DNA of 64,000 bases from Eledone cirrhosa (taxonomy: Eukaryota): the NCBI GenBank assembly GCA_964016885.1, contig OZ024740.1, positions 220,596,001 through 220,660,000 on the forward strand, written 5' to 3'. Below, in pieces: positions 39,326-39,777 of this stretch. Position numbers and translations under genes: made by a program. Position 1 is the first letter of the stretch; each line of letters opens with the position of its first letter. The notes under the pieces are model-generated. The model was not told the DNA's origin and searched no databases. It saw nothing but the letters and a program-made list of their open reading frames with translations.

Positions 39326-39386
39326 TTATATATATATATATATATATATACGATATTAAACAAATGGAAACTATATTTATAAAACC

Positions 39387-39463
39387 ATATTTATTTCATT
39401 ATACATATTTCAGGGATACCATATTAGAAATATGGCATGCCTTCTTCAGATAAAATACAATAT
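39387..39463 (-). ncRNA. Type I hammerhead ribozyme motif (exact mirror copy)
   Basis: Reverse complement of 39535-39611, in the left arm of the inverted repeat. Confidence 0.75.
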
Positions 39464-39534
39464 ATAAGCAACTTTTTTAAATGGAAGTTGAACAATATTT
39501 ATGCTACGTCAAATTTATTTATAAAACTGCTTAT

Positions 39535-39611
39535 ATATTGTATTTTATCTGAAGAAGGCATGCCATATTTCTAATATGGTATCCCTGAAATATGTATAAT
39601 GAAATAAATAT
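39535..39611 (+). ncRNA. Type I hammerhead ribozyme motif
   Basis: CUGAAGA 39549-39555; stem II 39556-39586 (13 of 14 pairs); GAAA 39587-39590; 3-bp stem III; AUA triplet 39596-39598; stem I 39541-39548 with 39599-39606, extending past a bulge. Confidence 0.75.
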
Positions 39612-39777
39612 GGTTTTATAAATATAGTTTCCATTTGTTTTATATCGTATATCTACTCCAAAACTTGTTGAGTGCTTTATATCAGTTATAAAATATTTAT
39701 TCGTTGTAACCCAACAATTTTAAATAAAACTTTTGTATATATATATATATATATATATATATGTTAAAGGTAAACAG

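Follow-up and report, generated by a model that had tools for sequence, protein, structure and literature searches.

A head-to-head, 5'-truncated insertion of a Hydra-clade Penelope-like element in Eledone cirrhosa, and twin RNA hairpins that may set where its reverse transcription starts

The sequence analysed here (the window) is a 64,000-nt stretch of the Eledone cirrhosa genome (contig OZ024740.1). It contains two 125-bp arms in inverted orientation (39346-39470 and 39528-39652) with a single mismatch between them (39357/39641), which a repeat search lengthened to 138 nt at 96% identity. The initial annotation, made from the letters of the sequence, had described a near-perfect inverted repeat carrying one type I hammerhead motif per arm, and the arm comparison together with a descriptor scan confirmed this description (Table 1). 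Each motif combines the CUGANGA and GAAA core of type I hammerheads (here CUGAAGA/GAAA), an NUH triplet (here AUA) and three stems. In the plus-strand motif, stem I (39541-39548 with 39599-39606) has 8 bp and can be extended beyond a bulge, stem II has 13 pairs and one C.C, the GAAA lies at 39587-39590, and stem III, of 3 bp with a 2-nt loop, is followed by the AUA triplet. Run over both strands of the whole 64 kb, the descriptor returned three matches, the mirror pair and the minimal motif of a neighbouring repeat (38967, minus strand).

The Rfam search that had been proposed as a check was negative: no hammerhead model matched the locus at the gathering score, nor at E<=10, and the Rfam matches obtained there were weak miRNA ones that trace to the AT repeats and the hairpin. 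The isolated hammerhead fold was slightly more stable than shuffled sequences (z -1.47), 19 of the 200 shuffles being equally good. Stem covariation among genomic copies, which had also been put forward as a test, did not appear either in the family of the window copy (family 1), whose stems showed one-sided changes and some breaks, with no clean compensation. Position 7 varies among subfamilies, and the remaining core is kept in the common variants. Related loci from metagenomes carry a sense hammerhead motif in 48 of 77 cases and an antisense one in 2; their stems are unlike in sequence yet paired, and helix III is self-complementary or nearly so. Since Rfam is silent and the fold only modestly more stable than shuffles, we base the hammerhead call on the descriptor and the relatives, and by these both are judged to be genuine type I hammerhead motifs with predicted cleavage sites.

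Table 1. Features of the inverted insertion and its surroundings (positions in the window)
Feature	Position	Strand	Source
Neighbouring repeat of another family, with minimal hammerhead core at 38967	38846-39325	-	
Left (TA)n target	39326-39350		
Left arm, "short end": 5'-truncated element 3' end without tail; outer side enters (TA)n	39351-39470	-	L114
Left-arm type I hammerhead motif; core start 39449, predicted cut after 39400	39392-39457	-	Descriptor scan
Head-to-head junction; 2-bp microhomology, single occurrence in the genome	39469-39470		
Right arm, "tailed end": 5'-truncated element 3' end plus tail	39469-39735	+	
Right-arm type I hammerhead motif; core 39549-39555, stem II 39556-39586, predicted cut after 39598	39541-39606	+	
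First end site TATAT, where the family's tail-less arms stop; putative first RT start	39648-39652	+	58 short ends
Tail, about 82 nt, between both end sites, on one arm only	39653-39735	+	
Hairpin 1: 4-bp RCUC/GAGY stem, 2-nt 3' bulge, upper stem	39655-39677	+	
Right (TA)n target	39736-39761		

We identify the locus as one insertion of a 3.8-kb Hydra-clade Penelope-like retrotransposon in (TA)n, with two 5'-truncated arms joined head to head. The arm limits first given for it stood, except that the 82-nt tail of the right arm, which runs to 39735, had been overlooked, as had about 60 nt of further element sequence in what had been taken for a spacer between the arms. The right arm starts about 10 nt downstream of an initiator-like boundary known from other copies. 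A second hairpin (hairpin 2), which in full-length copies adjoins the tailed end, is missing from the window locus. The insertion is nested in (TA)n between the neighbouring repeat and a short duplicate (about 39762-39782) of that repeat's 3' end. Over its 3' 225 nt the neighbouring repeat matches other loci at 85-91%. The nearest copies of the insertion are 99.5% identical over 218 nt and its arms differ at 1 of 125 positions, in agreement with the earlier view that the insertion is young.

In the inverted repeat we recognise the pLTR end of a Penelope-like element, as its ribozymes had led the initial annotation to suspect: the same pLTR is found at both ends of a frame with reverse transcriptase (RT) and GIY-YIG motifs. 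The 218-nt element end gave 1,208 first-look candidates in the 3.0-Gb genome, many of them 99% matches, and the hammerhead 23-mer that we used to sample family 1 has 1,413 exact matches genome-wide. The parent copy (L031, on C2) has the structure pLTR-ORF-pLTR, with its repeats 3,814 bp apart; its frame, with RT and C-terminal GIY-YIG motifs, is broken by one stop and one frameshift. Open frames of 737-742 aa occurred in 4 of the 25 matching loci listed (the same or other loci). Within the subfamily to which the window copy itself belongs no open frame was found, and a sister subfamily has many, at 99% identity (737 aa), as well as a three-unit tandem. This tandem consists of three full units in direct orientation, 4,011 bp apart (L130-L132; G000:C7:78452867-78463066). 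Sequence searches of Pfam and PDB with the ORF returned no match, and the fold search alone recognised it as an RT: the protein model (pLDDT 90.7) had telomerase RT as its best fold match (E 6e-10).

The element carries the marks described for Hydra-clade Penelope-like elements by Craig et al. 2021 (PMC8557442; for example Penelope-13_HM and Hydra-1_Obim), namely RT with a C-terminal GIY-YIG domain, RW[K/R], DKT, a CxCx5C linker, CxxC-E and CxH, a (TA)n target and a canonical type I hammerhead near the 3' end. Its single ORF, open over 737-742 aa, has YRDD and, near the C-terminus, IIY..YVG. The RWK/DKT mark is present as RWR and DKT in the family, and among 91 aligned proteins RW[KR] occurs in 82 and DK[TS] in all 91. 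The CxCx5C linker is found in 3 of the 4 open copies and 77/91 aligned proteins, CxxC..E in 89/91 and C[RK]H in 78/91. There is no conserved CCHH in the endonuclease core, where the lone core cysteine is A in 82/91. The flanks of 58 short and 53 tailed ends are TA-rich, except for 4 tandem continuations, and those of a second family are alike; the hammerhead lies in the pLTR. By the motif set given in PMC8557442 we assign the element to the Hydra clade. The published size, "generally" under 3 kb, is exceeded by the unit of 3,816 bp, although the word "generally" makes this mark non-exclusive. Our elements differ from those published in this 3.8-kb unit with its long 3' UTR, in a tail of 82 nt (88 nt in family 2) versus 30-40 bp, and in a hammerhead sequence unlike that listed for Hydra-1_oBim. 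In File S2 of the same paper, Penelope-13_HM is entered with a sense and an antisense hammerhead that come from a 5'-truncated copy in inverted orientation, so the mirror pair is a known layout of a known clade; the supplement also lists an octopus Hydra family. Taken by itself, the window locus is an unremarkable relic of a known transposon clade.

A second Hydra family (family 2) is present in the genome, with 48.5% protein identity to family 1 and 10,022 pattern matches; its pLTR gave no blastn match to the window copy. Family 2 (L151-L180, L258-L317) is very young, with an 821-aa open frame, tandem copies, a helix III that forms a GCGC palindrome, and a pronounced hotspot of 5' truncation.

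The outer ends of the arms were surveyed in both families. For family 1, the first 100 of the 1,413 pattern matches formed 63 clusters, and sequence was taken for 60 of these; since the sample was picked by a pattern inside the hammerhead, arms stopping short of the hammerhead are under-counted. Among these first 100 matches listed, a divergent pair within 6 kb occurred in 34 of the 63 clusters and a convergent pair in none. The 46 head-to-head junctions comprised 41 that joined a short to a tailed end and 5 that were unclassifiable; none joined two short or two tailed ends. Loci L066 and L068 among these seem to be a single insertion that was duplicated, which leaves 40 independent short-plus-tailed junctions. 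For family 2, the script classed 34 of the 38 picked pairs as mixed, 3 as short+short and 1 as tailed+tailed, and two of the short+short assignments became mixed on inspection (a 2-nt insertion), giving 36/38. The exceptions are one true tailed+tailed pair (L293) and one short+short pair that lies inside a 966-bp inverted duplication (L276). When both families are pooled, 76 of the 78 classifiable independent insertions consist of one short and one tailed end.

The two arms of an insertion belonged to the same haplotype class in 18/19 and 29/30 cases (47/49 together), where about 35% would be expected. The tail-less arm was the one reaching further towards the 5' end in 20 of 40 insertions; in 11 of 40 it was the tailed arm. 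The differences ran up to kilobases. At the window locus and the other short pairs, junctions and arm lengths differ from locus to locus, and some junctions are palindromic. None of 80 arms, a sample weighted towards arms that contain the hammerhead, ended at its cut. The arms share a source haplotype, and neither is nested in the other; the haplotype data fit two RNAs from one source equally well as one RNA.

At the inner (5') ends, a TC|A initiator-like point 70 nt upstream of the core is where 23 of the 50 family-2 arms that reach it terminate. Genome-wide, 4,231 family-2 copies have a non-genomic base before this point, which in the first 100 listed was G in 45, T in 45 and A in 10. The partner arm cannot supply some of the extra G's and can supply others, and G occurs in 7 of 14 filler junctions, one of these being explained by microhomology. 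These observations suggest that the extra G may be a copied cap. In family 1, 26 of 80 ends fall within a 36-nt zone that begins at a similar initiator-like point. A sharp capped start was considered for this family and found no support: 9 genome copies stop exactly at the boundary, 3 of them with G. Because the Penelope promoter sits in the pLTR (PMC2377424), run-off at the transcript start is favoured, and we regard it as the likely origin of the inner hotspot. Two family-2 junctions (L305 and L306) contain several short copies of the first bases past the hotspot, as if the RT had jumped back repeatedly at the RNA 5' end.

In full-length copies each of the two end sites is followed by one copy of a bulged hairpin, with a 4-bp RCUC/GAGY stem and a 2-nt 3' bulge, and both copies are kept in family 2. 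The end boundary lies 6-7 nt 5' of the stem at all four end sites of the two families, allowing for AT common with the target. We then looked at the leaders of Hydra-type elements from metagenomes, of which 41 were available from 77 loci after exclusion of 20 without a recognisable N-terminus and 16 with a leader of <200 nt. Two hairpin copies were present in 30/41, one in 7/41 and none in 4/41; the search pattern had been composed after the leaders were inspected, and the 4-bp stem is nearly invariant. None of 41 ORF windows contained a copy, and 3 of 4,100 shuffles contained two. Two matches were also found in 3/41 reverse complements, a control that lacks independence for a nearly palindromic motif such as this one. 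In a reading by eye, metagenome ends with (AT) flanks lay 0-6 nt before a hairpin in about ten cases, several contig-end overlaps having been set aside.

The pairing above the 2-nt bulge, which was not built into the search pattern, gave a further comparison. The first pair above the bulge was formed in 72/75 hairpins (50 C-G, 20 U-A), the next in 49/72 and the one after in 34/44, values that 0 of 10,000 shuffles attained; in slid registers, the first pair was formed in 1/76, 4/76, 10/75 and 16/72. Because the cells that covary belong to related elements and to two paralogous positions, the independent events are far fewer than 75. The loop is variable (6-20 nt) and the bulge fixed. Folded alone, lone hairpins have z near 0, so the support for them is comparative, folding energy giving none. 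From this comparison of sequences, the twin hairpins are likely to tell a telomerase-like enzyme where copying starts. An essential role for a UAUAU match to the target was also considered, and it was weakened by the sister subfamily and family 2, which show 2-3 nt of AT homology at some sites.

We propose that the insertion was made by both ends of the cut target priming reverse transcription, each at a different hairpin of the element RNA, and from the sequence evidence we give this reading a probability of about 0.68. Transcription would start in the pLTR, 70-90 nt upstream of the hammerhead, to give an RNA with the order leader, hammerhead, site 1, hairpin 1, site 2, hairpin 2, ORF. Two RT-endonuclease subunits would sit on the two hairpins, (TA)n would be cut on both strands, and each target 3' end would prime at the site beside one hairpin, aided by a few A-U pairs. 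Synthesis of both cDNAs would continue across the hammerhead, uncleaved or religated, as far as the 5' end of the RNA, or halt sooner, and the two cDNA ends would be joined by microhomology or a short filler. The mirror ribozymes would follow from two-ended priming as a by-product. Copying one RNA twice requires strand displacement, and long tailed arms could alternatively come from the 3' pLTR followed by (UA)n, without hairpin 2. For the wider proposal, that throughout the clade the hairpin pair provides two ruler-like RT start signals, with a protein dimer on one capped uncleaved transcript and one break end per hairpin, we see slightly better than even chances. If true, such a ruler-like arrangement of two hairpins would account for tails on one side only, for inverted repeats joined head to head and for the abundance of short hairpin insertions that carry ribozymes.

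This proposal extends a scheme shown in a different clade. For Poseidon_Ac of the green anole, Frangieh et al. 2024 (PMC11167929) describe two internal RT starts that bracket the tail, cutting and extension of both DNA strands, use of uncleaved RNA (hammerhead cleavage being dispensable) and an AT-rich target, and predict a dimer. In Poseidon_Ac a single AC-rich stem-loop within the ORF holds both sites, which are reported to have no target homology and no strand preference, a point against our proposal, whereas the putative sites here lie upstream of the ORF, each by its own copy of the bulged hairpin, with short AT homology and one site per arm.

The main rival is a single priming event followed by fold-back: one cDNA would be copied back (or an antisense RNA would self-prime) and the endonuclease would trim one side and leave the tail on the other, the hairpins being endonuclease or DNA-level signals and not RT start signals. 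Identical arms and one-sided tails would arise naturally in this way, and palindromic junctions do occur at some loci. Its parts have also been published as hypotheses. The Penelope elements of Adineta vaga share with ours the inverted pLTR, the optional one-sided tail, palindromic or microhomology junctions and an initiator-like TCACT in the pLTR, and the authors proposed antisense-template self-priming (PMC3846280); a tail left by endonuclease resolution was suggested in PMC8557442, and PMC11167929 cites a requirement for the tail in endonuclease recognition in D. virilis. However, a copied-back arm must lie inside the first arm, and simple copy-back cannot yield the arm lengths of our insertions because the tail-less arm often reaches further 5'. 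The variable loop with its fixed bulge suits a single-stranded fold and not a double-stranded dyad site, and run-off at the initiator-like point fits a sense template. We therefore consider fold-back unlikely.

The initial annotation had instead favoured a non-autonomous, ribozyme-bearing retroelement whose RNA could alternate between a self-cleaving and a duplex form; such an element would be a cassette mobilised as one piece. Both motifs are indeed intact and the locus is young, the 23-mer is abundant, and animal retrozymes have been argued to derive from the pLTRs of Penelope-like elements (10.64898/2026.07.22.740005); they share with the window locus a type I hammerhead and a short palindromic helix III. 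Such non-LTR retrozymes have at least two tandem sense hammerhead units and no ORF, whereas the window locus has its hammerheads on opposite strands and a coding parent of autonomous type, in which the same pLTR brackets the RT-GIY-YIG frame. A constant internal junction, as in fold-back or MITE-like elements, is not found either. Since the junctions of other short pairs differ and that of the window is unique in the genome, the cassette was created at insertion and not copied as a unit; arm lengths also vary among loci. The proposed switch fares no better, as the antisense arm comes first in read-through RNA from either strand and the long duplex is predicted to be favoured by about 94 kcal/mol (-196 kcal/mol versus -103 with the hammerhead stems enforced). 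Motifs of such type are reported to need an intramolecular dimer (PMC4209133), which is impossible at the window locus because the two hammerheads lie on opposite strands. Read-through RNA of the locus is predicted to form a duplex of about 125 bp, not an active ribozyme, and a mobile cassette is very improbable. Two separate insertions with later gene conversion, or a mis-assembly, might also have made the mirror. Conversion between inverted arms could equalise haplotypes, the inverted duplication at L276 indicates that larger events of this kind occur, and the contigs compared were short repeat fragments, none spanning the entire locus. Strict pairing of short with tailed ends, always divergent, with unlike flanks on each side and distinct junctions in dozens of loci, is not expected from such events, which we rate as more improbable still.

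Two-ended priming remains our preferred reading. Penelope-like elements are the closest relatives of telomerase RT, and the data of the two families bear on a question raised in the literature, namely by what route these elements acquire their tails and inverted ends. A defined RNA signal with fixed spacing, young open frames and clear mutational predictions bring this question within direct reach of experiment. If true, two-ended priming guided by a small portable RNA signal would be a mechanism distinct from the target-primed reverse transcription of L1 and R2. From the 1,413 and 10,022 exact pattern matches of the two families, the genome appears to hold thousands of such inverted pairs, which are a predicted source of long double-stranded RNA. 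In the literature searched, mainly the texts, without figures, of papers outside subscription journals, we found no report of the twin hairpin, the strict end pairing, the shared-source arms or the family-2 truncation point, and a word search of the Hydra paper supplement (PMC8557442) gave no mention of twin hairpins, strict end pairing or shared-source arms.

The window also contains several other repeats and frames. Two related long stop-free frames, of 779 aa (16453-18789, plus strand) and 516 aa (30314-31861, plus strand), match no Pfam family above the cut-off, and the longer one includes a 27-bp tandem array at 18452-18731. Similar LINE-type RT fragments lie on the minus strand at 485-1762, 46976-47977 and 62963-63988, the first with RVT_1 and PHD-finger matches. 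At 57431-61694 (plus strand) a 69-bp tandem repeat accompanies fragments that match a PIF1-like helicase (E 1e-40); these are presumably what is left of a Helitron, which they resemble. Two identical tRNA-like 64-mers, at 22840-22903 (minus strand) and 49983-50046 (plus strand), score at the Rfam cut-off and are probably SINE heads. Finally, related tandem arrays with units of 46-49 bp occur at four places (25332-25713, 40943-41348, 55021-55337 and 62525-62628).
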